A DNA stretch of 64,000 nt, taken from positions 10,540,001 to 10,604,000 of the forward strand of contig CP075496.1 in NCBI GenBank assembly GCA_021613535.1, in the 5' to 3' direction. The stretch's first letter is position 1. Each line of letters starts with the position of its first letter. Source of the DNA: Adineta vaga (Eukaryota; Animalia; Rotifera). The notes under the pieces were generated by a model. That model worked only from the letters and a program-made list of their open reading frames with translations, was not told the origin of the DNA and did not search any database. Shown one piece after another: positions 27,625 to 62,382 of this stretch. The position numbers and the translations under genes are program-made.

Positions 27625-28178
27625 AATGTGAAGTATCGTTCTAGTTCTTTTTTAATGTTTCATTCGTTTGTCATCTTTTCTTTTACTCTCTGTATATATA
27701 TATATGTATCGTTGAAAATAATTGTTCAAATAGTTATTAAAACCAAATATGTGTTTCTAATAAAAGTGATGTTATAGAAATCTTTCCACGAAAAAAGGAA
27801 ACAAATAAACGTTTTTTTCTGTATTCAATTTTTGTGAATATATATTAAATTGAAATCAAAAAATTTGATTCAACACTATAAATGATCATCAATCGATCTT
27901 TCGAACGAAAAAGATTATATACTGATCACTGTCGCCACCTGTCGTATACTAGTTTGATAGTTCGAAATCGTTCTTCCAATACATTTCATTCTCTCTCTCA
28001 TCTAGTAATGTGATGATGGTGATTCTTTTAGCTTTTACTTTGCCGAGTCTTATCATAAACTTGTAGGTGTGCTAGAGTGCCAAATTTCTTGGTGTCTTCT
28101 TATCTATTCTATTCTTCTTCATTTTTTGTCGACGATTCATTTCGAATCTAACATTATTTAGATGCTACATTCAAAACA

Positions 28179-31100
28179 ATGACGCATAATATACCAGACA
28201 ATCGCGATCTTTCCTGTTATCATGTAACAAAACATTCATGGCGTGGAAAATACAAACGAATATTTTCCATCGGTACACATGGTATCAGTACGTATGAACC
28301 ATCAACACTTGGTCTGACCAATGCCTGGCCATATGATCAAGTTGTGTCACTAACACTATCAAAGTCAGCAAATACAGCCGATAAATCGCAACAAACAATA
28401 GCAAATTCTTCACCGATTGCTGAGTTTATTCTAACATTTCGAACAAAATCAAAAAAAACTGATACAATGCGTTTTTCCAGTGAATATCGTGCAGAAATCT
28501 TAACAGATGCATTACGTTTTCAATCATTATTTAGTCATCAACAACCATTACCACAACCCAAAGTTATATCAGCTACAAAACTTCATTGGTCATCCCAACG
28601 TATACCTGTTCTTCTACGTATTCAATCAAATTGCATTGAACAAATCGATGGAAGTACAAATCGTTTCCTATGTTCATATGATTATAAAGATATTGATCAA
28701 TTAATTTCATTGACAAGTGAAGGTGATACAACTCCACGTGGATTTCTTATTCAAGATAAAAATACCGGACGATTACATGCATTTGTTACAACTGAGAGTC
28801 AAAGTATATTTCAAAATGTCGTTGATTCAGCTCATGCAAATCTTGGTGTACAAGTTCGTTTATCGAAAAAATCTTTTACACTCAATGATTATCAACAATT
28901 ACGTTTTGGTCCAAATTATACATCTGATGAGCATTTAACATCATTTGCTGAATTTATTGTTTACAAACATTCATCACGACATACCGAAAGTGTTCGTCGA
29001 TTACTTTGTTTAACGGAAACATGTTTAATTGAACGTGATCCAGCAACGTATCATATATGTACATTGAAACCATTAAATGAAATCTTTGCACTTGTAAGAC
29101 ATAAAGATTCTTTACAAGAATTTACCATTGAATATATACGAAATAATCCAACACGAGTTAGATGTAAATATACATCGACTGAACGAGATATTCTATTAGC
29201 AACATTATTAGATGGTGTACGTTCAGCTGGTAATAATGATTGTTGTGTTAAAACGAATCCAACAGATCGAGGAAAACGTTTTGCACCATTTGGACATTTA
29301 GTGGACGATGAAGTTGAAATACAACATTTGAAATTCTTAGTACAACCACCATCAGGTTAGAAAAGAAAAACAATAACAGAAATTTTCATTCTTTTTTCTT
29401 CTATATCTAGGTCGACTTTCATCGCCACAAGATGGAGCAAATTCTACGGCATCGCAAGGAAATGTTTCATTCAATGAAATTTTAAAACGATTTAATGCTA
29501 ATGTACCGTATAGTGGTTTAATCAATGCAGTTACATCAGAAGGTATAGTATCATAGACATTTTTCCCCAAAAAATAAGAGCAAAAAAGAAAAGTAATTTC
29601 TCATTAAATTCAAGTGTTACTTTCATGTTTACAATACTTGAGAAAAAAAAGAGAAAAGAAATTTTCATTAACATAAAAATTGTTCTTTCTTCTTTTTCAA
29701 GGTCTTTTTGCTGAAAAGAAAGAAAAATTAATTCATTCAGCATTAAATGCTTTACTCGATAATGATACAACTAATACAGTAGTTGATCTTGAATTTATCG
29801 AAGATCAATATCTTGCATTACGACGTTTATTAGCATCGAAAGCTGGTTTTCAAGCATTTACTCAATTATTGAAATTTCGTGAACGTATCGGAACAAAAAT
29901 CGTTCGTTCATTAAAATTAAATGATGATCAAGTTACATATTCGGCATTAGAAATGTTGAATACATTATTACAACCAATGCATTTAGATTATGATATACGA
30001 CAAGAACAATTGAATAAATCTAGTATATTATCATCGAAAAAATTTCTTGAAGGTTTATTAGATATTTTTTTAAAACATGTCAAACAAAATACAGGTTCAT
30101 TGATTATATCATCTTTTTTGGATTTTCTAACATATACCTTATGTCCACCATTTTCCGAAACAACAGGTAAACTTGTCATTTCAATCGATTGATCATTATA
30201 GGAAAGAATTTATTTCGATTTTAATTCTAGATGGACAACATTTTGATGTTCTTTTGGAATTAGTATCATCGAATGGAAGAATATTTTTTAAATTATTTCA
30301 ACATTCATCATTTACAATTGTGAAAGGAGCTGGATCGATAATGAAAGCTATTATTGAAGAAGGTTCATCAGATATTGCAGCACATATGCAAGATTTAGCA
30401 TTGAGTGAAGGTGCTCTACCAATTCATCTTCTACGAGCATTATTTACGTCATCGAATGATACAAGACTATTACCATTGAAATATCTTAGTCAACAATTAC
30501 TTGGTTTATGGTCAACTGGACATCCAACAACATATGGATTGTTGAAAAGAATATTTCCACTTGGTCTTGTTGCTTATTTAGATTCAAGTGAAGAACCGGA
30601 GAAAGATTTTGGTAAAGAAATTTACTTCAATAGTTGGCAGAATTTAATCTAATCGTTCTTTTCATTCTAGATGAATCATCTCTTCTTGGTCGTGATAATC
30701 TTCGACTTGCTACTGAACAACATGCTAATACAACAAAAAGTAATGCTCTATCTACTTCGATAATAAATACTGCTAATAAAATTCGTAATGCAACTCAAGT
30801 GAAAATTCTTGAAAATCATGTTCAAAATACGTTTCAACATTGGAGTTTAAAATTAAAACAAAATAATAAATATTCTTCTTCGGATAATACGAATTCTAGT
30901 GGAACAAATCTAACGAATAATTTAAATGATAAACAACAACCTGTAGTTCTACGTAAACCACGACAACGTATTCGGGCTGAAAAGAATTGGCGATTATTTT
31001 ATCAAAAATTTATGATGGATCATGCACGACCAACATTGATTTGGAATAATAAAACTCGAGATGAATTACGTGAAACAATCGAAAATGAAATAAGAAATTT

Positions 31101-34100
31101 TAATATTGATAAAGATCTTGGTCATGGACATTTAATATCATGGAATCATCATGAATTTGAAGTTTTATATCAATGTTTAAATGATGAAATCAAAATTGGA
31201 AGTGTCTATTTACGTCTATTATTAGAACAAGGTGAATTAACAACTAATACAGATGCTGCTTCAGGTTCGTAAGGATTGAATATTCTTGTTCTTTAATAAA
31301 TTATTTTCTTTGATTTTCAGATGCTTATAATGCATCGGAATTTTTCAATGATCTTTATCATCGTTTTCTTCTTTCACAACCAATTAATCCTAAACAAGCA
31401 GCTATGAAATCAATGTGTTTGCAAGCAATGACTATTGTCTATGCTCGTCATTATGAAAATATTGGAGCATTTAATGATACAAAACATATTATTCTTATGC
31501 TTGATCGTTCAACGGATAAATGTGAACGTGATCGTTTATTAATGTTTATTAGTAAATTAATCTTAAATCATCGAAATGTGCGAGATATAATCGATTGTGG
31601 TGGAATTAAAACTTTAATTCAATTGATGTGTTTAGCACATTTACATATCAATCGTGCACAAGTACCATTAGCTTCGAATGTCTTAGAATCATCATCAACA
31701 ATGACAAGAGAAAGTGAAAAAGAATGGTACTATGGTAAACAAGATAAAGAAAAACTTGGTCCATATAGTTTCAATGAAATTAAAGATTTATATAAAGAAG
31801 GAACATTTGATGCGAAAACACGGTATTGGGCACAAGGTAAATTTGTTCTTGAAACTGTTGAGAAAAATGTGAAGAGAATTAATTTTTGTTTTTAAATTTC
31901 ATCTTTAGGTTTGGATGGTTGGAAAACAATAGATCGTATTCCACAATTAAAATGGACTTTATTAGCTAATGGTCAATCCCTTCTGAATGATAGTGAATTA
32001 GCTGGAATGATTCTTGATATTTTAATATCAATGTGTGATTTATATCCTTCACGAGATGTTGTTACAGGTGCAATCATTCGTCCATTTCCAAAAATCAAAC
32101 GTTTATTAAATGATCCAACATGTTTACCACATTTAGTTCAATTATTATTAACATTTGATCCAAGTTTAGTCGAAAAAGTTGTAATATTACTCAATGCACT
32201 TGTTCAAGACAATCCATTACTTGCACAATTCTATATGACTGGTGTTTTCTATTTCATTTTAATGTATACTGGTTCAAATATTCTTCCAATTGGACATTTT
32301 CTGAAATATACACATTTAGCACAAGGATTTCGTTCCGATGAACAACAACAAAGTGGAGAGAAAAAAGATTTACTCTTTCGTTCAGTACTTGGTCATCTAT
32401 TACCTGAAGCAATGATTTGTTATTTGGAAAATCATGGACCTGAAAAATTCGCACAAATGTTTCTTGGTAAGTCAAAAACATGTTCACTATTTATTTTTTA
32501 TTTATATTAATTCGTCTATAGGGGAATTCGATCAACCGGAAACAATCTGGTCAAATGAAATGCGTCGTTTAATGATCGAAAAAATTGCTCTCCATTTAGG
32601 TTTGATAATTTCTAAATTCAGATATAGACGGGGAAAAACAAACATTTTCAATATATCTTTCTTCTTCTAGCTGATTATTCTCCACGTTTAATGTCAAATA
32701 TTGCAGCAATTTATTCCTATTGTACAATTCCAGTTATTGATTATCCACAATTAGAAAGTGAATTATTTTGCAATACATACTATTTACGTCATTTATGTGA
32801 TGAACAGAAGTTTCCAGAATGGCCTATACGTGAACCTATTGCATTACTTAAAGATTGTTTAAATATGTGGAAAGCTGAATTAGAGAAAAAAGGAAGTGAT
32901 ATGAGTGTAGATGAAGCATATCAAGTACTTGGTAAGATTCATTGAATTTTCAAATACATTATGAACTGTTCCTATTTTCTATTGATCGAAAAGAAATCAA
33001 AACAACTTTTCTATTTAGAAATATACAGTACGGAAATAGATTCCGATAACTTAAATGATATCAGAGGTGAACATAATTCCTAGTCTCATATAATCTGCAT
33101 GTATTCTAACTGGATAAAGGATAACAAAAGCAAATCTTGACTATTGATTCAACAAACATTTTTCATACTTTCATTATTATGTGATCTATCATTTTAGGTC
33201 TTGATATAAAAGATGGAGATTCTCCATCAACAAATGGTCCACCAAATGAATCAACGATTCGTAAGGCATACTTTCGTCTTGCTAATAAATATCATCCAGA
33301 TAAAAATCCAACTGGTCGTGATATGTTCGAACGTGTTAATAAAGCATATGAATTTCTTTGTGCTGCTTCACGTATTCAACAAGGTCCAAATGAATTCAAC
33401 ATTTATTTATTACTTAAAACTCAATCTATTCTCTATCGTCGATATAAAACTTTACTTTCCGAATATAAATATGCTGGTTATCCAATGTTAATTCGTATAC
33501 TTGAAACTGAAGCTAAAAATGATCAATTATTTTCAACAGGTAATACAACAAAAGCTACAGCATTATTACCTATTGCTATTGAATTACTCTATTATACACT
33601 TGATTGTTCGGAATTAAATTGTGAAGAATTACGTCGTGAAAATGGTTTAGAAATTTTAACACAAGTATTTCAACGTTGTTCATCAGTTATTACGAAATCA
33701 TCTAAATCCGATGATTTTGTTGTTGCTGTTTGTCAATATTCCGCATTATGTTATAGTGTTGCTGGACATTTTGAGAAATCACGTGATCTATTTGTTGATC
33801 CGGATAAACTTCAATGTGTATTAAAAGAATTATGTCATTGTTTAAATTATACACATTTAAAACAATTATGTACATGTATATGTAAAGCAGCAATGTCTTT
33901 ATGTCATTCAGATGTACGTTTAAGAGATTTATTACATCGTCATGGTTTCTTTGTTTATGCTTGCCGTGGATTATTTAATTATGATTATACATTAGATGTA
34001 AGTTTTCAAAAATAAAAAAATTTTCATGATCAAATCGATAATATTTTCTTTTAGGAAAGTGGTATTGCTGATGCAAGTAATAAACAATATGTTGATAATC

Positions 34101-36338
34101 AATTAGCATATGATTATTTACAAACACTTGCATCACTTATTCCAGAAAATCCACCTGCTTTAATGGCTGCACAAACATTCTTAACTCCATATATTGTTTC
34201 TCAATTACCAGATCGTGCTATATTGAAATTACTTAATTCAAATCAAGAACAACCTTACTTAGTTTGGGATAATTCATGTCGACAAGAATTAATGGATAAA
34301 ATGGATGAAACACGAGATTATTTAGTTAAAAATGATTACAAATTAGATATAGATAAATTTGGTAATCCATCCGAATTTCGTTTTTCAGCACATAAAAATG
34401 AATTAATTATTGGCGAAGTCTTTGTTCGAGTTTATAATTTACAACCAACGACTGTTCTCAAAGATCCGAAAAGATTCTGTTTAGATTTAATCGATTACTT
34501 AGGAACAAGTTCACAATATATCAATACATTGATGTCCATGCAAATTCAACAAGAACAACAGCAACAACAAAAATCAAATGTATGTATATATTCAAAAAGA
34601 GTCGATCATTCGTTGTTGAAATCTATCTATTTTGATTTAGGACGATAAAAAATCTGCTGAAGTTATTCAACAGGAAAAACAAGAGCATATATCTCAAGCA
34701 TTGGAAGCATTAAAAAATGTTATTCGTAATAATATTGGTACTGAAACATTATGTATTGGTCATTTTAAACTTTTATTTTCATTATTACGTATGGAAAACG
34801 TTGGTCGTTTACAACAATATGCATTAGAATTGATTCTTCATCTGAGTGGTTCAAATGAATGTGTCAATGATATATCACAATCGAATGTGATTGTTTATCT
34901 TTTACTTGTTCTACGTTCATCATTATCTCATCAAGAGACAACATTAGAGATATTAAATGCACTTGCATCGAATGGAAAAATTGTTCGAGATATTGTTGAT
35001 AGTGGTGGTCTTCTTTATCTACTTGATATTTTTTCCAATGGACAAAATTCCAATTTACGTGAACAAGCAGCTAATGTTCTAGCTAAATTAATGAGTGATC
35101 GTTTACATGGTCCACGTATACGTTTACAATTAATTAAATATCTACCTAATTTAGTTATTGATGCTATGCGTGAATCATGTGAAACATCTATACAATTATT
35201 TGAGACAACACATGAAAATCCGGAATTAATTTGGAATGATCATACACGTGAAATGACATGTGAACGTATTGGTAAACAACTAAATGAATTTTACATAAAA
35301 CAACGAATAGCACCAACGGAAACGAAATGGTCTCTTGATGATTCCTATCAATTATTAGGTGATGATGAAGAAACACAACGAATTCAACAAAATGAATTAG
35401 TAGTAGCTGGCGTTTATATTCGATTATTAATTGCTAATCCTGGTTGGATTGTTCGACGACCAAAAGAATTTCTTACTGAATTACTTAGTCGATGGACTAC
35501 ACATTCAAAGTAACTATTATTCATGATAATTAAGTGATCATGATTTCTTTTTTTTATTTTCGTAGACAACCTGAACAACTTCTTATATCACATACGGATG
35601 AATTTGAAATGTTAACACAATGTTTAATTCAATTATTACATGCTCAACCAACATTATGTGAACATTTACCATCAATCGGATTTTTACCATCAATTGTTCA
35701 AGCATTAGAATGTAAAAAGAATGATGCTATTGTTGCATCTGCTGTGAAAGTACTCTTTGCTCTATGTAAATCAGAGGTTTGTTTACAAACATTTTCAATG
35801 AAATGTCCACAAATTATTAGTGGATTTAAACAAGCTATGCAAGCAAGACGTGATCATCTTGGTACGAAATTTATAAAGATAATATTCATTGACTTTATTT
35901 TGTTTTTCTTTTACAGGACTTATATCGGAATGTTTACATGATCTATTTCGAACACCAGCTCCAGGTACACCGGATGAATTTATTAAAGAATCGTTACGTT
36001 GTCAATTGATTGAACATATTCTAACATTACTCGATCAACCATTAGCAGATGTTGAAAAACCAGGTTCTTGTAAAGCACACTTAGTTGATTCATGTAAATT
36101 AATGGCTGAATCATTAGTTTATGGTGAACAAGTATCACGTATACTTCAATCGTCAACAGTATGGAACGATTATAAAGATCAACGTCATGATCTTTTTATT
36201 CAAACATCATCCCATATGCAAGCATTAACAGGTGGATCAGTAGGACCACAAATTGCAGGTTATTTAACGTCATCAACATCGACAACAACTGCTGGAAAAC
36301 AAAACATGACTGTTCCTCCACCATTAATGGATAATTAA
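28179..36338 (+). CDS. DNAJC13: DnaJ homolog subfamily C member 13 (RME-8)
   Basis: [18 protein letters not shown]-terminus, IWN repeats ([24 protein letters not shown]), GYF-like region, J-domain KYHPDKNP, C-terminal [10 protein letters not shown]. Confidence 0.98.
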
Positions 36339-51570: not shown

Positions 51571-54500
51571 TTAAAAATGTTCCCGAGGGACAACTACATT
51601 TGCAATTGGTAAAGTTGAACGATTATTTAATGTTGAACCGTGAGCTGAAAGAAAAGAAAAATCTCGTTTTCTTTTTTATATTGATTGACAATAATTGACT
51701 TACAAATTGATCGTTTTTTAGGATGAGTTTTAGTTGCACGATTATTTGTTGTCGGAAGTAATGGTTCTTAAAAATATGAAATGAATCATTTACAAAGAGG
51801 CAAAAGAAAGTTTCGATATTTACCAAGTGGTGTCAATTCAGGAGAATCGGAATTTGTTCGACGAAGATCATTTGTTCGATTACGAGTTGCTGCTGGATCA
51901 TTAATTGTGACGGTTTTTTTCGGTTTTACAGGAGTTATTTCTAAACCATATATACTAGCTGCATTCTCTTTGGACACAATTAGATCACGTGGAACAGTGG
52001 ATCCTAGATATAAATACAGATAAATATTCTATTTTCGAGTTTTGTCTTATGAATGTATGTATATCTTACCCATATCTTCCATTAATTCTTTATGATGAAG
52101 ATTTGCTCGTCGTTGCGCAGCTTTTGCTGCAATGTCTTGTGTTTGTTTTCTTAATTTCGTTTTATTATTTACAGGATGATTCGATAAGTCATGTGGTGGT
52201 GGTATAATGTGAGTTTTTTGACGTGTTGAACTTGTTTCATTCTTATGAATAGGCATATCAACACTTTCGGAACTCATACTAACAAGCGAATTTCCTTTTG
52301 TTAATTGTTGTTTAGATGATTGATCAAAATTGAAATGTGAATATGAGATTGGTTTATTTTTTGTTGTTGATAAATCATGATTGCTTGTATCATTATTCAC
52401 ACGAGTAAAAAGATCTTGATCGGATAGAGTTCGATTTGGAGGTAATGTTGTTATGGATTGATTTCGTCGAGAATTATTTGATGGTAAATGAAAACTTGTA
52501 ACGGATGTTGATGCACTGGTTAAATCTTCTTCGGCTATTTGAGAAAGAAATGGTAAAGTTGATTTACCATTGGCACCGGCTATTGTACGTAATGAATGAG
52601 CTAGAAAATATTTAAATAATAGAAATATGGTACGAAGATCTCGCATACTCTTTAAATCTTGAATAAGTAATCCTTCGTCAATATCTCTTGAATACAATTG
52701 ATAAAGTTCTTCAAGATCTGCTGGAACTAGAATTTGATGTTCTAAAAAGACAAAAACGATATGATGTCAATCAAAATTTTCAAGTGTTATTTTCATTTTA
52801 CAAAAAATAACTTGAAGTGCAGTTTTGTACACTTCGTCATTGAAGTCAAGTATGTTTTTTTGTTGAATATTCCTACCTTGAATAAGTCGTCGTTGTTGAT
52901 AAATTAATGTATCACATAAACTTTTATGTTGACCCATACGTAATAATTGTAAATCTTTATTTCTTATCATATGTTCACGAGAAAAGATTTCGGCCTGTAA
53001 TTCAATTGTTTTCATTTCATATTCGAAATTTTGAGAAAGTAATTTCAGTAATTCACGTTGTTCAAGACTAGTCATTTTCTTAGTTACTTTCTAGAAAATT
53101 AAAAATTTATGTTTGTTTTGAACAAGTCTTATGAATATACTTCAAATAAACGACGCGCATCATTCTTGGCCGTTTCAAAATCTTTCAATTGAACTTTACG
53201 TTGCTTTTCTAATTTTAATCGTTCTTGTTCTAAAACACGTAATTCTGCACGTGCACGTTGGACACTACTATCAGTTATTGTTGTGTCAATTGTAGTATTA
53301 TCACTTGAAGGTTTTTTACTATTTCGTGGACTATTTTCTTTATTGGAATCATGACTAAAAGAATAAGAAGAAAGTAAATAAATAAATGATCATAGAAATA
53401 AATGAATTATTTACTGTTCAATAATTGCTTCATTTCGCATAGATTCATGTTTAAGATCCATCAATCCACTATCAATTTCTAATAGTGCACGTCGAGCTTC
53501 AATTTGTTTACGATATGCTTGAACAATACTTTCTTTTAATTTTAAACCTTCTTCAACGCGATAACGTTCATTAGTATTAGAATCTATGAAATACAACAAA
53601 ACAGAACTATTCAAAATCATTCATAACAAACACGAGATTACATACCACTAAGTCGACTAAATCGTGCTTCATTTGTTGTCATTAAACGCATTTCTAAGTC
53701 ATCTTTTTGTTCTCGTAATAATTGAGCTTGATTTCGTAGATCTTTAATTATCTGTTGATATTGTGCAATGTGATATGAAACATCAATTACATTTCGTCGT
53801 ATCTAAATCATTAGATCGAATGGTTTGAAGAAAAGATCAGTTGAAAACAAACTTTTGTTTTAATATATTTTGCTCGATCAGCATAATTTAATGTATTTCT
53901 TGATTCTTCAAAATGAACAGATGCAGGTGAAATATGTGCAATCATTACTGTACGAGAATTTCCTCCGAGAGAATCTTTTAAGATTCTTGTTAATTTACTA
54001 TCACGATAATTGACATATTTCGTACTTCCTTTTTCACCTAAATGATAATTTCGAATGAAGATTTTCTGATTTCAAAAAAAGCAATTTCAATATTTACTTA
54101 ACGCATTGATACAATTTCCTAGAGCGAGTAATGAACGATTGATATGGGCACCTAGAAGATAAACGAAAAGTTTATGGATTTTGTTCGATATTCTCTGGTT
54201 TTTCATTTTCTTTTTCAAATTAAAAAATTCGATATCGAACTTTCTTTTTTCTTCGTTTACATTCTCGTGTTATTTACCTAAAATAATTAACATTTCTAAG
54301 GTTTCAAAATAATTTTATACCTTCCATCATTCGTTTGCCCGTATTTTGAGTTTGTGCTGCTCGTTCTGATCCAGCCAAATCAATCATATAAAGTTTTGCT
54401 AGAAAAATTTCAAATGTTTATGTCAGAAGAAAAGTTTCTGATGTTTTTCTTTACCAAATTGAACTTGTTCAGTATGAGATCGTGTTACATCACGTTGTTT

Positions 54501-55416
54501 AATATTAACTTGAAGAACAGCATGCGATCTCGATGATGTTTTATTCGCTTTTGTTGGTTCTTGAGTTCGAGCACGATTACCTTTATGTAACATTTCCATA
54601 ACTTCTCGAGGAGTTTTAGCAATAACTTCACTAAGACCAGCAACTTGAATTGTACCTTTTGCATCTTCACGTAATTCAAGAAATGATGATGATGGAACAA
54701 GTAAATCACGAATAAGTTCATTATATATTTCTAAATAAGACATGGTCACTTGATATTCTCGTTGACCTTCATAATTTTTTATTTCAACAAATAGATCATC
54801 TAATGTTCGATACATAACACCAGGATTATTCTCTGTGCCTAACATGGTATAAGTTTTTCCCGCTCCTATATGAAAGTATTCTCATTTGACTGCTAAGTTC
54901 TGTTTGTACGATTTGTTACCTGTTGCACCATAGGCAAATACAGTTGCATTATAACCTTCTAAAACACTACTTAAAAGAATTTTTGCTGTAGCTGCATAGA
55001 CTTCTTGTTGTTCAGCACGAGCGTCTGAAACAACGTCAAACATATATTTGCGTTCACGAGATCGATTAGCGCGTAGAATATCATCATGATCTTCTTCAGG
55101 ATCAAGCAGAACAACCATCTATAAATACCAATCAAATTATCCAAATTTTATGATGAAGTAAACGGTTATACGTACGTTATCTTCAGATACTTTATGAGCT
55201 ATAATAGTACCACCCTGTAGAATTTCTTCTTCTGTCATTGGTCGAATACGACAGGCAACCTTGAGAAAAGAAAACAAAGCATGATTGAATTGATAGAAAG
55301 ACAAAGAAAAAAAGAAAATCAGAAGATAATCTATTTACCATAATTTGTTGTTCGCCAGTTGGTAGTAAAGGTAAAGGAGTTCCAGCAATAATATTATCTT
55401 TCAGTACGTTCGTCAT
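51571..55416 (-). CDS. KIF19: Kinesin-8 family motor KIF19-like
   Basis: [36 protein letters not shown]|[63 protein letters not shown]. Last exon ends at TAA 51573-51571. Confidence 0.93.
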
Positions 55417-57726: not shown

Positions 57727-58012
57727 CGACAAATTTAAATTAACGAACTAACATTATTTTTCTCTTTCTCTATTTTTGTTTTCAAATACACGTGGTGAAC
57801 ATAGGAGAATTAAATTAACACGTATCTCTTTTTTTATTATATCTATCGATGTATATGTATATCATCAACATTAATGTTTACAATTGAAAACATAAATAAA
57901 CGAAAAGAGGAAAAAATATAACAAAAAAGAAACCAAAAATATATCGCTGAATTAATGCATGTTGCTGGAATAATAAACTAAAGCTTTAATAGAAGTGACT
58001 ATATGTTGAATT

Positions 58013-59466
58013 TTAACTGACAATATTCTGTTGAATTTTATAATAAAATGCACGTGCAGCATTGAAACGATTGTTATAACATTTATCTAATTCAACAAAT
58101 AATGCATCACGAGCATCATTATCATTAAGTCCAACCAACAATGTTTCATATAATTGTTGAAATTTATCTTCTCCTAGAGGTTTAAAACGATTTTTATGCA
58201 GACGTAATGCATTGAAACAAGACCAAAGATGTTCTTTAATTGATTGCCATACTTGTGTGATAATTTCATTATCACTTTCATGACCAATCATGGCTAAATA
58301 AATATCGATGATTCTTATTTTTTTAATCGAATAGAAAAAAGAAATTTTACCAATAAAAACATCTTCACTAAATGGTGAATGTGGAATATCCATAAAAATG
58401 CCAAGTAACTTTTCAAGTTTTGTCTTTTGACCAAATGCACAACCAAAATCAATATGAAGAATTTTACCATCATCCGTAATCATTATATTATCGTCTAAAA
58501 ATAGATTTGATATATATATGAATTTCTTATATATATATCTTACCATGACGATCAGCTAATTTTAAAACAATTCCCGATATGACGAAACCAAGAAATGTTC
58601 GTAATAAATTTCCTTTTCGTTCTGGTGATTTTTCAATAAAAGATTTCAATGCATCTGTCGATGTTGAATCTTTATTTTCAACAGCAGTTTTAAATTCAAT
58701 AAATGGATGAGCATTTTCCACACATTCAATAAGTCCTTCGTTTTGATCGACTGGTAAAACCTGACAAAAGAAAACAACATGAGAATTCTATTACATTAAT
58801 ATCATCTGTTTTTACTTCATATAAAACAACTTCAGCACTGACATTTTCTTCTTTGAAGATTTCATTCATTTCTTTCATTACAGCAACACACATCGCATCT
58901 TGTAATAAATCATCACCATGTTTATAGATGCATCTAAATCAAATCCATTAGAATTTTCAGAGATAGAAATAAAAAATAAAAGGTAAATCTTACACTTTTG
59001 TATTACCATCTTCATCAACAGCTGTAAATTTTAATGGTTTTCCTTTTGATGGTATAAATGATCCATCGCGTAATTCTGTAACAAGAAAATGTGGTGATGT
59101 TGGTAATAGAAATGGAACAGGTATTTGTGTTAAATCAGGTGTTTTACTATCAGCAGCTTTTGTCATGGTAGAGATTTTTTCAATTGCATCACGAGCAATA
59201 AATATACGTGCATTATTATCTAATACATGTTGACAAACTTTTCCATGTTTATGATAATGACAAGACCAATAGAGACGACTACAATCAGCATCAGTAAGTA
59301 TACCTAATGCTTGAATTAATGCTCGATCGGAATGTTCAAATAATGCCCAAAGAAAGAATGGATCATGAACATTGACAATATTTGTTGGTTCATTATCATT
59401 TTCATCTTCTTTCGATTTTACTTCCTCAACATTATGAATTGGTACATTCAGATCAAGATCGCACAT
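58013..59466 (-). CDS. Minimal PI3K/PI4K-superfamily kinase (~410 aa, 5 exons)
   Basis: Spliced exons total 1233 nt and give SKGKPLKF, IYKHGDDLLQD, GLIECV, LKLADRHDDNIMI and LHIDFG. Confidence 0.88.
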
Positions 59467-59684
59467 GATTGGTTGACTGAAATTACAACAAATCTAATTT
59501 GAAAAGAAAATAATATGACAAAGAATAATTTTATTAAGAAGAATTTTGTTTTATTTCAAACAAAAATATTATGTTACTGACAATTAACAACAATTTTATC
59601 ACACGAAACGAATTCTATTAAGCTGTAAGTTTATTTCTTGCTTAGGTATATATGCGGAAAAAAAGGAGAAAAATGTTCTTTTTT

Positions 59685-61625
59685 CTATGTAGTACGTTGT
59701 CGTTTAACAGTTGGTGTCGTACTATGTAGAATATCTTGTCGACATATGGGACATTTTCTCAAGTCTTCTTCTTGTTTAGTAGCGCAATCATTACATAAAC
59801 ATTGATGACCACATGGAAGTAAAATAACTGAAGTATTATTTGTTAAACAAATACAACAAATATCGGCAGTAGTACTTGCTGTTTTGTTTATAATAGTATC
59901 AGTTAGCTTTTCAAGCAATTCTTCAGTTTTTAAATTGCCTTTGATACTATGTTGTTTAGCTAATGTTTGTAAATCTCGACGTGGTATTGTATCAAGTGAT
60001 GGTAATGTTTTTTTAACAATTGGCGTAAGATTTGTAACAGTAGTAGTTGCAGCAGCTACTACTGTTGTCACGAGTGGAGGTAGATGAAGATCATTATTTA
60101 AAGGTATGTCATCTTCTTGTGCAATATCCAATAAATGTTTATATTCTTCATCATTCAATGATTGATCGTTGAGAAAAGCCATTTCTTTATTGAAATATTC
60201 GACCAAACGTGGAAATTGTCGACGCATTGTTTGATATTCATCAATAATTTCAGGTGTTGCTGATGCTTGACGCAATTTTAAATAACGTTTCATAAATGCA
60301 GTGTAACGCACAAGTAAAATAGCTTTACGTATTCCTGAATGCGAGAATGAATCAATATTCTTGTGAAATTCAAATTCTTGTTCATTTGTTTGTCGAATAC
60401 CAGAAACTGTATCCCATGATGTATTGATTTTGAATTTGTTCGTTTGTTCTTCTTCTCCTTCTTTTTTCGTATCAATAATACGAAATAGGAGACATCCACC
60501 ACGTACTTCATTTTTGTCATTCATTGGTGATGGAAATTCCGTAATTAATTTAATTGATTGACGAGTTTGAATTGGATCTTGAAGTTGATGAACTTCAGGT
60601 GATCCATATCCTTGTTCAAGTATATATCGTTCGCCTAAAAGTTTCAATTCAATATTAAATCCAATTGGTGTAACTGTATAATGAAATTCTGTATTCATTA
60701 ATTCATCAAATGTTCGAGCATTTCGAACATTACAATAATTACAACCAATTGTACGTGATACCGATTGAATAACTTCAGCACCTAAATCAAGACCAACACC
60801 AACAACAGTTGACCATATTGTTTGATCTTGTGCATTACGTTCAATACGTTCTAGAAATTTTTTACCATCATCTCTCGATACTTCCATATCGGTAAGAAAG
60901 AAAATACGACGACTAATCATATTATTATCATCTTTCAAACCTTTGGTATCAATCGTACTGTTGTATAATTCACTTGAAACTTCAATTGCTCGACTAATAT
61001 TTGTACCACCAGTAGAACGTAATTTCAGAATTTTCTCTTCCAGTTGTTTTTTATCTATTGAAGATAGTTTTTCAATGGGCTGTAAAACAGTTGCTGCATG
61101 ATTGAAAAGAACAATACCAAGTGCATCATCAGGTGTCAATTGTTTCAATAATGTTAGTAGTGATTGTTGTGCTACTTGCAATTTTGTTTTACCAGGTTCG
61201 CCTTCAAATCGGTCGGACATCGAACCAGATATATCAAGTGTAATAACTAAATGAAGTCGACAATGATAGGTATGAATACCAGGACCATCGAGACAACTAT
61301 TAAAATTCACACTTAACCAATGTTCTTGATTTTGTGTTCCATTTTCTAATGGATTAACTGTAGTAGCAATACCATAGGATGGTAAGAATAAATCTACAGT
61401 TGTTCGTTGTGATGCAAAATAATGTGCATAGAATGAACTTTCATAACTAACATCATAGTTAACATCAACTGGTGCTGCAGCTTCAAGTTCAGTTTCCGTA
61501 ACTGCTGCTTTGCCTTGTTGTTTAGCTTCAGCTTGTTTTCGTTGAGCGTATGCGTGAAATACTACAGTTTTTCGCGGTGCTTTACCACCTGTAGACTTAC
61601 GAGCTGTTTGCTTTGTACGAGCCAT
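59685..61625 (-). CDS. Intronless chimeric protein: histone H3 N-terminal tail + VWA domain + SAP-like motif + RING finger + NLS
   Basis: Starts MARTKQTARKSTGGKAPRK; VWA LVITLDISGSM...GGTNI...FFLTD; DLQTLAKQHSIKGNLKTEELL; RING CCIC...LPCGHQCLCNDC...CPICR; ends PTVKRQRTT. Confidence 0.9.
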   Translation of the reverse strand: MARTKQTARKSTGGKAPRKTVVFHAYAQRKQAEAKQQGKAAVTETELEAAAPVDVNYDVSYESSFYAHYFASQRTTVDLFLPSYGIATTVNPLENGTQNQEHWLSVNFNSCLDGPGIHTYHCRLHLVITLDISGSMSDRFEGEPGKTKLQVAQQSLLTLLKQLTPDDALGIVLFNHAATVLQPIEKLSSIDKKQLEEKILKLRSTGGTNISRAIEVSSELYNSTIDTKGLKDDNNMISRRIFFLTDMEVSRDDGKKFLERIERNAQDQTIWSTVVGVGLDLGAEVIQSVSRTIGCNYCNVRNARTFDELMNTEFHYTVTPIGFNIELKLLGERYILEQGYGSPEVHQLQDPIQTRQSIKLITEFPSPMNDKNEVRGGCLLFRIIDTKKEGEEEQTNKFKINTSWDTVSGIRQTNEQEFEFHKNIDSFSHSGIRKAILLVRYTAFMKRYLKLRQASATPEIIDEYQTMRRQFPRLVEYFNKEMAFLNDQSLNDEEYKHLLDIAQEDDIPLNNDLHLPPLVTTVVAAATTTVTNLTPIVKKTLPSLDTIPRRDLQTLAKQHSIKGNLKTEELLEKLTDTIINKTASTTADICCICLTNNTSVILLPCGHQCLCNDCATKQEEDLRKCPICRQDILHSTTPTVKRQRTT

Positions 61626-62382
61626 CGCGATTGACGTAAAATGAAAAATGATAGAGAAATCAGGTAAGACATATTCTTATATATTCGCTGGACGAGAATG
61701 TGTAATTGCAAAATATCTGCTCAATTTAGTGAACGAGAAAGAAATAACAAAAAACTAATATCTCAATACGAAGCACAGAGTGATAAAAAGAATATATTTT
61801 CTGCATCGGCCTTTTTAGAGGTAACAGATTGACAACAGATAGAGATATTACGAAATGAAATGTAACCAAACACATGAGTCATTCGAGATCAACCAATGAA
61901 ATTTGTTTTCGAAGTACTTGTCAGAAACCTATTTCATATACGAAAGATTACACTAGTTGACAACTATAGAAGAAATATTGTAAATATCTTTTTTCAGTGA
62001 TCATATTCAAATTAGTATATGAACGAATAGGTATTCTTTAAAGAGAAAAAAACATTAAGTTTATATCGAAAGATGTATTCTATATTAACTTCAATTGCAA
62101 AAAAAAATACAACTCGATTACATGATTGATACGTTCAATCTTCCCAAATTCAAATACAAATATACTGTTCTACCACAAAGATATATATACAAACAAATTC
62201 ACGAAAAAAAAACACATAAGAATTCTGTTCAATAGTTCATCACTCATTAAGTCATCGTCTCTTTCCAATTTTCATCTCTATGGAATACGATCTGATAGTT
62301 AAATTCTGATTTTATGGTCGAAATAAAATATAATTCTATCAAAGCACGTAACTGACATTTTCTGTTATGATATAAAAACTAT

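Follow-up and report, generated by a model that had tools for sequence, protein, structure and literature searches.

A bdelloid rotifer gene combining a histone H3-like tail, a VWA core and a RING finger, probably acquired whole from an amoebozoan-type protist

In this study, we analysed a 64,000-nucleotide stretch of Adineta vaga contig CP075496.1 (hereafter, the window) and identified an intronless gene that was probably acquired whole from an amoebozoan-type protist, with its H3 tail, VWA core and RING finger already joined, and that encodes a predicted nuclear ubiquitin ligase with a putative histone-tail bait. An amoeba-like protist would have donated the ready-fused gene to a bdelloid ancestor. 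It is very probable that a single transfer took place before the split of Adineta and Rotaria and was followed by duplication, the second copy losing the tail lysines, a helix-extended-helix (HeH) segment and the basic C-terminal tail. No description of this gene or of the H3-tail/VWA family was found in the literature, the search of which covered few subscription papers; it may have been mentioned in reviews that treat protist chromatin proteins by comparative genomics.

The open reading frame (ORF; protein P0001) encodes 646 aa on the minus strand without an internal stop, and its stop-to-stop frame of 663 codons is the longest in the window, the runner-up having 402. In two of the three RNA-type runs (X7 and X8) the ORF was bridged by one joint-free contig, the X8 contig (record 18) spanning the entire ORF from 59578 to 61778; the third run, X17, covered only its 3' part. 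In the same X7 and X8 runs, four CT..AC joints, corresponding to GT-AG introns on the minus strand, were detected in the downstream neighbour gene. The type of these runs was a tool guess, and we treated them as RNA because the neighbour gene is spliced there. The comparison of joint-free contigs with four joints next door agrees with the sequence-only reading, which had described a 1.9-kb intronless ORF amid spliced neighbours. At least half of the sampled words of the ORF were found in 16 of the 24 sequencing runs listed. Among 21 variant sites within the ORF, 12 were synonymous and nine non-synonymous (pN/pS 0.215; binomial p 0.0006), which shows that it is under purifying selection. Contigs of three runs also differed by a 6-base gap inside the ORF, at about 60442-60471; this is an in-frame length polymorphism, probably in a Glu-rich loop.

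The genomic surroundings of the ORF were those of an animal genome. Pfam matches were obtained for seven of the nine window frames tested, with RME-8, kinesin, KH, SPRY and MFS among the neighbours, and the GC3 of the ORF (0.136) fell inside the range of neighbouring host frames. The PI3/PI4-kinase-like gene directly downstream also adjoins the orthologous ORF in Rotaria sp. Silwood1, where one gene model (P0035) fuses both, and the same neighbour accompanies a 69% identical ortholog at metagenome locus L081, again in a single frame. This neighbour could itself be a second foreign gene. Contamination was rejected on the basis of the animal-type neighbours, synteny, host-like GC3 and independent sequencing runs; the gene is a genuine, transcribed bdelloid gene common to Adineta and Rotaria. 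Three A. vaga VWA genes that appear in the available text of two expression papers (FUN_006836, FUN_009967 and FUN_010278) were considered and could not be tied to the ORF; the best match given there for FUN_006836, to Tetrahymena (2e-34), is at odds with it. The coordinates of the ORF, its parts and its neighbours are summarized in Table 1.

Table 1. Features of the ORF and its surroundings (window positions; aa, residues of P0001)
Feature	Position	Strand	Basis or remark
Single-exon ORF P0001: H3 tail, beta-sandwich-VWA-helical core, SAP-like HeH, RING, basic C-terminal motif	59685..61625	-	
Approximate transcript (extent of unspliced RNA-type contig over the ORF)	59529..61827	-	Run X7 record 14
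H3 N-terminal tail mimic (Met + H3 residues 1-18)	61569..61625	-	PDB H3 peptide matches
Non-histone helix after the tail	61518..61568	-	Alignment; model helix 21-36
Conserved core, aa 52-505 (VWA inserted in a beta-sandwich, then helical bundle)	60111..61472	-	Sec23/24-, ArnB-, 4FX5-like fold
VWA domain, aa 126-310	60696..61250	-	Pfam E 1e-9
HeH segment, aa 541-580	59886..60005	-	Possible SAP/LEM/Rho-N-like fold, without Pfam match
C3HC4 RING finger, aa 588-633	59727..59864	-	Pfam zf-C3HC4_3, E 1.5e-13
Basic C-terminal motif KRQR, putative nuclear localisation signal	59694..59705	-	
PI3/PI4-kinase-like gene, short, spliced, directly downstream of the ORF	57942..59375	-	
RME-8/DNAJC13 gene, large, spliced	28152-36335	+	Ordinary host context
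Kinesin gene	about 52000-55400	-	Ordinary host context, with KH-domain exosome-like, SPRY and MFS genes near

Residues 1-22 of the protein matched H3 peptides in the PDB, and the identity to H3 stopped at H3 residue 18. No histone-fold family was detected by Pfam after the tail, and the protein is not a histone H3; the helix following the tail carries the pattern V-x-F/Y-x-x-Y/W, like the Physarum-group proteins described below and unlike H3. The MIDAS of the VWA domain is complete (D131, S133, S135, T208 and D246), and the matching D/S/S/T residues were invariant in all 18 non-bdelloid relatives compared. All the flank motifs quoted in the sequence-only reading were located in the translation: YESSFYAHYF (aa 61-70), LFLPSY (79-84), NPL (91-93), HWLSVNFNS (102-110) and SGIRKAILLVRY (430-441). 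An AlphaFold model was built from a 28-row alignment (pLDDT 80), and its core matched Catenulispora 4FX5, archaeal ArnB/VWA2, ITIH1 and Sec23/24 at 10-16% identity; Foldseek searches with the core gave E values of 8e-16 to 3e-12 and a target TM of 0.56-0.62 for 4FX5, ArnB and VWA2. The predicted fold is thus shared with ArnB/VWA2, 4FX5 and ITIH1, but these are only 12-16% identical and have neither the H3 tail nor the RING, and a shared fold shows no function.

The RING finger retains all eight zinc ligands in C3HC4 spacing, with an Arg after the last Cys, and its best PDB matches were cIAP2, cIAP1 and MUL1. IAP-type RINGs need a C-terminal aromatic strand for dimerisation; this strand is absent from the bdelloid and Physarum RING, which speaks against ligase activity, and is kept in several versions from the amoebozoan clade. 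For the HeH segment, no SAP family was found in Pfam at E up to 0.1 with the whole protein or up to 1 with the segment, there was no Atlas match, and Foldseek gave no significant name (E above 3). Its model contains the two helices, and the top structural rows were Rho-N (Z 5.4), the SAP domain of Hcc-1 (5.1) and LEM (4.5), with Z values of only 4-5.4. As far as this evidence goes, the modelled segment may be called ‘SAP-like’ at most.

To describe the relatives of the protein, we searched with the core (aa 55-505) and obtained 509 matches, of which the best 120 were listed. Among these 120, the first 36 after the query were bdelloid or bdelloid-like (63-84% identity), among them named orthologs at 83-84%, and the next tier, at about 31-46%, consisted of Physarum, Vermamoeba, Cavostelium, Rhizamoeba, Protostelium, the foraminiferan Nonionella and an Acanthamoeba cluster that includes XP_004338280.1. 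The best named non-bdelloid match among those listed was from Physarum (45%, E 5e-111), and the prokaryote-type rows reached only 30-35%, with E values of about 1e-53. The closest non-bdelloid relatives among these matches are amoebozoan proteins, in line with the proposed resemblance to amoeboid protists. The resemblance to VWA proteins of Methanosarcina and haloarchaea was also real, since the flank motifs could be aligned to proteins of Methanothrix, Methanosarcinales and Haloglomus, but the amoebozoan match is much closer. The hU index, taken as defined in the accessible part of PMC5916493, was about 191 based on core BLAST scores of 393 bits for Physarum and 202 bits for Sycon, and about 70 if an entry labelled Hirondellea gigas (323 bits) is counted as animal. 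This amphipod entry grouped beside Rhizamoeba (support 97 and 88) and is likely a protist contaminant of the transcriptome.

An exhaustive search of 1.84 billion representatives yielded 1735 matches at E up to 0.001. Among the best 150 of these, the order was unchanged, and a second H3-tailed branch appeared, with Sycon (a sponge) and Jimgerdemannia (a fungus) among its members. When Sycon was used as the query, 72 matches were obtained, which brought in Corticium, Oscarella, Oopsacas and Lithocolla, and a profile of 18 non-bdelloid members (65 matches at E up to 1e-60) added U-box forms and no further named animals. Apart from the one Hirondellea transcriptome entry, no other named animal was seen in the bdelloid branch among 120 of the 509, all 72 and all 65 of these rows; among the matches listed in the three protein searches, many of which carry no species name, there was likewise no named homolog from sister rotifers or gnathiferans, and no plant protein was named for the core. 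In a scan of prokaryote genomes, at least 475 of at least 603 pattern matches were confirmed as members of the core family, the carriers being Methanothrix, Methanosarcinales, Nitrosopumilus, Dehalococcoidia and others. In a metagenome scan, genuine H3 genes predominated: the match extended past the tail at four of 80 loci (L081-L084), and no other clear H3-tail fusion was detected among the 16 tail-only loci translated.

Next to the bdelloid branch, two further sets of animal sequences were observed. Four sponge homologs (P0130, P0262, P0263 and P0265), which presumably cover three sponge classes, are H3-tail VWA proteins that lack a RING and end in a basic low-complexity region; no further animals of firm placement were seen in the sponge branch. 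In addition, the bdelloid P0115 cluster (Rotaria sordida) combines two ubiquitin-like repeats with the VWA core and lies inside the prokaryote-type group (100/97). This ubiquitin-VWA family is likely a separate acquisition, again tied to the ubiquitin system.

For phylogenetic analysis, the core regions were excised with a profile before tree building. We used 78 rows picked to span the groups, with near-duplicates and fragments omitted (FastTree), 46 rows (LG+C20 quick) and 33 rows (LG+G4 with bootstrap; LG+C20 quick), the last set being free of Hirondellea, long-branch Lithocolla and redundant rows, including prokaryotic ones. Every tree yielded the same three groups; no root was inferred. 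Group A (99/99) contains the amoebozoans, the foraminiferan, the bdelloids and rows without a species name; in the 33-row tree it comprises 16 rows, six of which are named amoebozoans. Group B (100/99) comprises the sponges, the fungus, and U-box and other forms, and group C (100/100) comprises the prokaryotes, tail-less eukaryote-type rows and the bdelloid ubiquitin-VWA protein. The bdelloids form one clade (100/100), the nearest to which is the Physarum group (82/91 and 88). Since the foraminiferan and several unlabelled rows share group A, the donor may have been something other than an amoebozoan, and an animal could be among the unlabelled rows.

Alternative topologies were compared by AU tests, all of which were performed after the first tree; the animal and prokaryote groupings had been set beforehand by the sequence-only reading, and the nesting test had not. 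The grouping of bdelloids with sponges was rejected (p 2.5e-120; 8.9e-67 under the mixture model), as were those with sponges plus the fungus (p 2.9e-78) and with prokaryotes (p 4.3e-8). A position of the bdelloids outside, as sister to the rest of group A, was also rejected (p 0.011, 0.013 and 0.0019), and their grouping with the group A protein P0043 was not rejected (p 0.33). Together with the hU value, the nesting of the bdelloids in a protist clade and the rejection of an animal grouping support the horizontal acquisition suspected from the sequence. The accompanying view that the VWA core is non-metazoan holds in part: the core is foreign to bdelloid animal ancestry, but the four sponges carry a separate branch of the family.

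The fusion predates the bdelloids, because the amoebozoan relatives already carry an H3-like tail and several of them also the RING. The zf-C3HC4_3 RING was found together with the VWA core in Acanthamoeba P0325, in Physarum P0041, in Protostelium P0053 and in the non-bdelloid relative P0043. The tail matches H3 at all 18 positions in Vermamoeba and P0043 and at 17 in Rhizamoeba, Protostelium and an Acanthamoeba-cluster protein; in the Physarum group, which contains the closest relatives, it is degenerate (8-10 of 18). Among the 23 non-bdelloid members of group A, R2, T3 and Q5 of H3 are kept throughout, position 4 is K in 14 and R in nine, and position 9 is hydrophobic (V, L, M, F, I or C) in ten. 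Of the 17 tails in the second branch, 16 agree with H3 at 12-18 of the 18 positions, and the proteins carry a RING, a U-box or no ligase domain; position 4 is K or R in all 40 non-bdelloid tails. Neither an H3 tail nor a RING was seen in prokaryote-type homologs, and the four sponge homologs are without RING, so that neither tail nor RING is universal. These results point to an apparently undescribed family with an H3 tail and a MIDAS-intact VWA core. Its members come from amoebae, a foraminiferan, a fungus and sponges, and at their end they carry a RING, a U-box or neither.

Two peculiarities of the tails were observed across this family. In several separate lineages (P0057, P0193, P0053, P0045, P0061 and P0060), the K9 position is occupied by M, V, C, L or F; K-to-M changes trap or inhibit SET methyltransferases, and the K9 replacements recall such inhibitors. 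In P0074, P0137 and P0060 an H4-tail-like stretch was present, and P0074 and P0137 also carry an H3 alpha-N-like stretch after the H3 tail; we assume these stretches to be histone-like, forming a double histone mimic. With regard to the HeH segment, P0043 has an HeH-like stretch collinear before its RING, which the bdelloid HeH profile matched at only E 1.2. The segment was significant only in bdelloid-type proteins, and judging from these sequences it may be a bdelloid addition. The proposed domestication of a foreign domain by fusion to host modules is hence not upheld for the histone and RING parts, which amoebozoans already have; the SAP-like HeH alone may have been added in bdelloids.

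Within the bdelloids, the main copy and a paralog could be compared. H3 positions 1-8 are invariant in all 23 main-copy bdelloid-type proteins and all 18 positions in 12 of them, conservation fading at about position 18; K14 is present in 23/23, K9 in 22/23 and the HeH segment in 23/23. A basic motif in the last 15 residues was found in 22 of the 23 main copies vs none of the nine paralogs. The paralog, represented by P0023 of A. vaga and eight others, with copies in A. steineri and A. ricciae among them, is without K4, R8, K14, the HeH segment and the basic C-terminus and keeps the RING in 8/9; of the HeH only a remnant was detected, in four matches. The joint disappearance of tail lysines, HeH segment and basic motif from the paralog suggests that tail, HeH and basic motif form one nuclear module. 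The nine paralogous proteins offer a natural control for the function of the tail.

How the gene entered the bdelloids can be judged from these results taken together. Under vertical inheritance with hidden paralogy, an ancestor would have had two paralogs, of which sponges kept one, bdelloids the other and the remaining sampled animals none. The family is indeed old and patchy, occurring in amoebozoans, a foraminiferan, Jimgerdemannia, Lithocolla, U-box forms and four sponges, and support within the amoebozoan clade is only moderate. Because of its two ancient branches and patchy distribution, heavy gene loss across the family is certain, and hidden paralogy stays compatible with the trees alone. 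We nevertheless regard this explanation as improbable: the bdelloid branch has no other named animal among the matches listed, except for the transcriptome entry placed with Rhizamoeba; the bdelloids are nested inside the protist clade and not beside it (p 0.011 and 0.0019); the ORF is intronless amid spliced genes; and about 8% of A. vaga genes are reported as foreign in the accessible part of PMC5916493.

An uptake of an archaeal or bacterial VWA domain, with host H3, SAP and RING modules joined to it later in the bdelloids, appears very improbable. The core is widespread in archaea and bacteria, as the prokaryote genome scan confirmed, the flank motifs are common to both, and the HeH segment is significant only in bdelloid-type proteins. 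Proteins annotated as ‘Ca-activated chloride channel family protein’ in Methanothrix, Methanosarcinales, haloarchaea, Dehalococcoidia and Sulfurovum share the whole core, the flank motifs and the MIDAS with the bdelloid protein; they differ in being only 30-35% identical, in forming a separate clade (100/100), in having signal- or membrane-type leaders in place of the H3 tail and in lacking the RING. Amoebozoans already have tail and RING attached, the sequence after the bdelloid tail resembles the Physarum group and not H3, and the AU test rejected a bdelloid-prokaryote grouping, so the archaeal source that had been envisaged does not stand. The probable origin is thus transfer of the complete gene from an amoebozoan-type protist. 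The amoebozoan relatives share with the bdelloid protein the core (38-45% identity, same clade), the H3-like N-terminus and the zf-C3HC4_3 RING; they differ in being annotated only as VWA proteins, and a clear HeH and basic C-terminus are bdelloid extras.

As for function, we tentatively propose, at slightly less than even probability, that the domain composition is that of an E3 ligase acting in the nucleus, with the H3 tail as bait for readers or writers of H3. The free tail would be bound or modified by readers and writers of H3K4, K9 and K14, the metal-binding VWA core would hold a partner or co-factor, the SAP-like HeH would tether the protein to DNA, and the RING would recruit an E2, so that the captured protein is ubiquitylated. 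Separate branches of the family end in a RING or a U-box. It is unlikely that the tail, with the same origin of the gene, serves chiefly for nuclear import or represents a captured gene start. Importins bind H3 tails, and in several protist branches K9 has changed or the tail has degenerated, in agreement with an import role; against it, the strictest conservation, in both deep branches, is at H3 positions 1-8 with a free N-terminus, the region read by K4 readers, and 22 of the 23 bdelloid copies have a separate basic C-terminal motif. Somewhat less likely still is a tail that serves, again with the same origin, as a defence sensor or decoy, whose modification by bacterial, viral or stress-activated host enzymes activates the ligase or marks the enzyme for destruction. 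The hosts are bacteria-eating or microbe-rich (amoebae, sponges and bdelloids), the hydrophobic K9 replacements in ten of the 23 non-bdelloid clade members recall K-to-M SET traps, and all bdelloid main copies keep K14, all of which would suit defence, but the gene is conserved, low-copy and under purifying selection, and the bdelloid tail retains K9 in 22/23.

The proposed bait can be set beside known proteins. G9a/GLP, DNA ligase 1 and influenza NS1 are histone mimics with short H3-tail-like motifs; the bdelloid protein resembles them in that a non-histone protein bears a sequence like the H3 tail, to which readers or writers could bind, and it differs in its 18 H3-identical residues, its free N-terminus and its junction to a ligase domain. 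The plant proteins SOR1/WAV3 unite RING, VWA and NLS in one E3 ligase and are called plant-specific in the available text of PMC5924906. The bdelloid protein would work like these and is probably not a member of their group, and an H3 tail is not reported for the plant proteins in that text. On a wider view that we consider possible but rather doubtful, an ancient eukaryotic family would use a full H3 tail as a decoy, catching H3-directed readers and enzymes of host or parasite for a RING or U-box; it would survive in amoebae, algae-type protists, some fungi and sponges, and would have been lost from most animals and have re-entered them via bdelloids.

The gene resembles other horizontally acquired bdelloid genes in its foreign best matches, host-like composition, linkage to animal genes and presence in both genera; it differs in that the donor was a eukaryote and in that the gene bears a histone mimic easily taken for a host part. 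The transfer into a bdelloid is in itself ordinary, and the family is the less ordinary result. The eukaryote-to-animal transfer concerned an entire chimera directed at chromatin, and because its histone and RING parts resemble those of the host, screens by whole-protein best match could misjudge the gene. The analysis also brings to light a widespread family in which H3-tail/VWA proteins are coupled with ubiquitin-ligase domains and distantly related eukaryotes retain an almost unaltered H3 tail. Should the tail act as bait, the family would be a natural system by which histone readers or writers are degraded.
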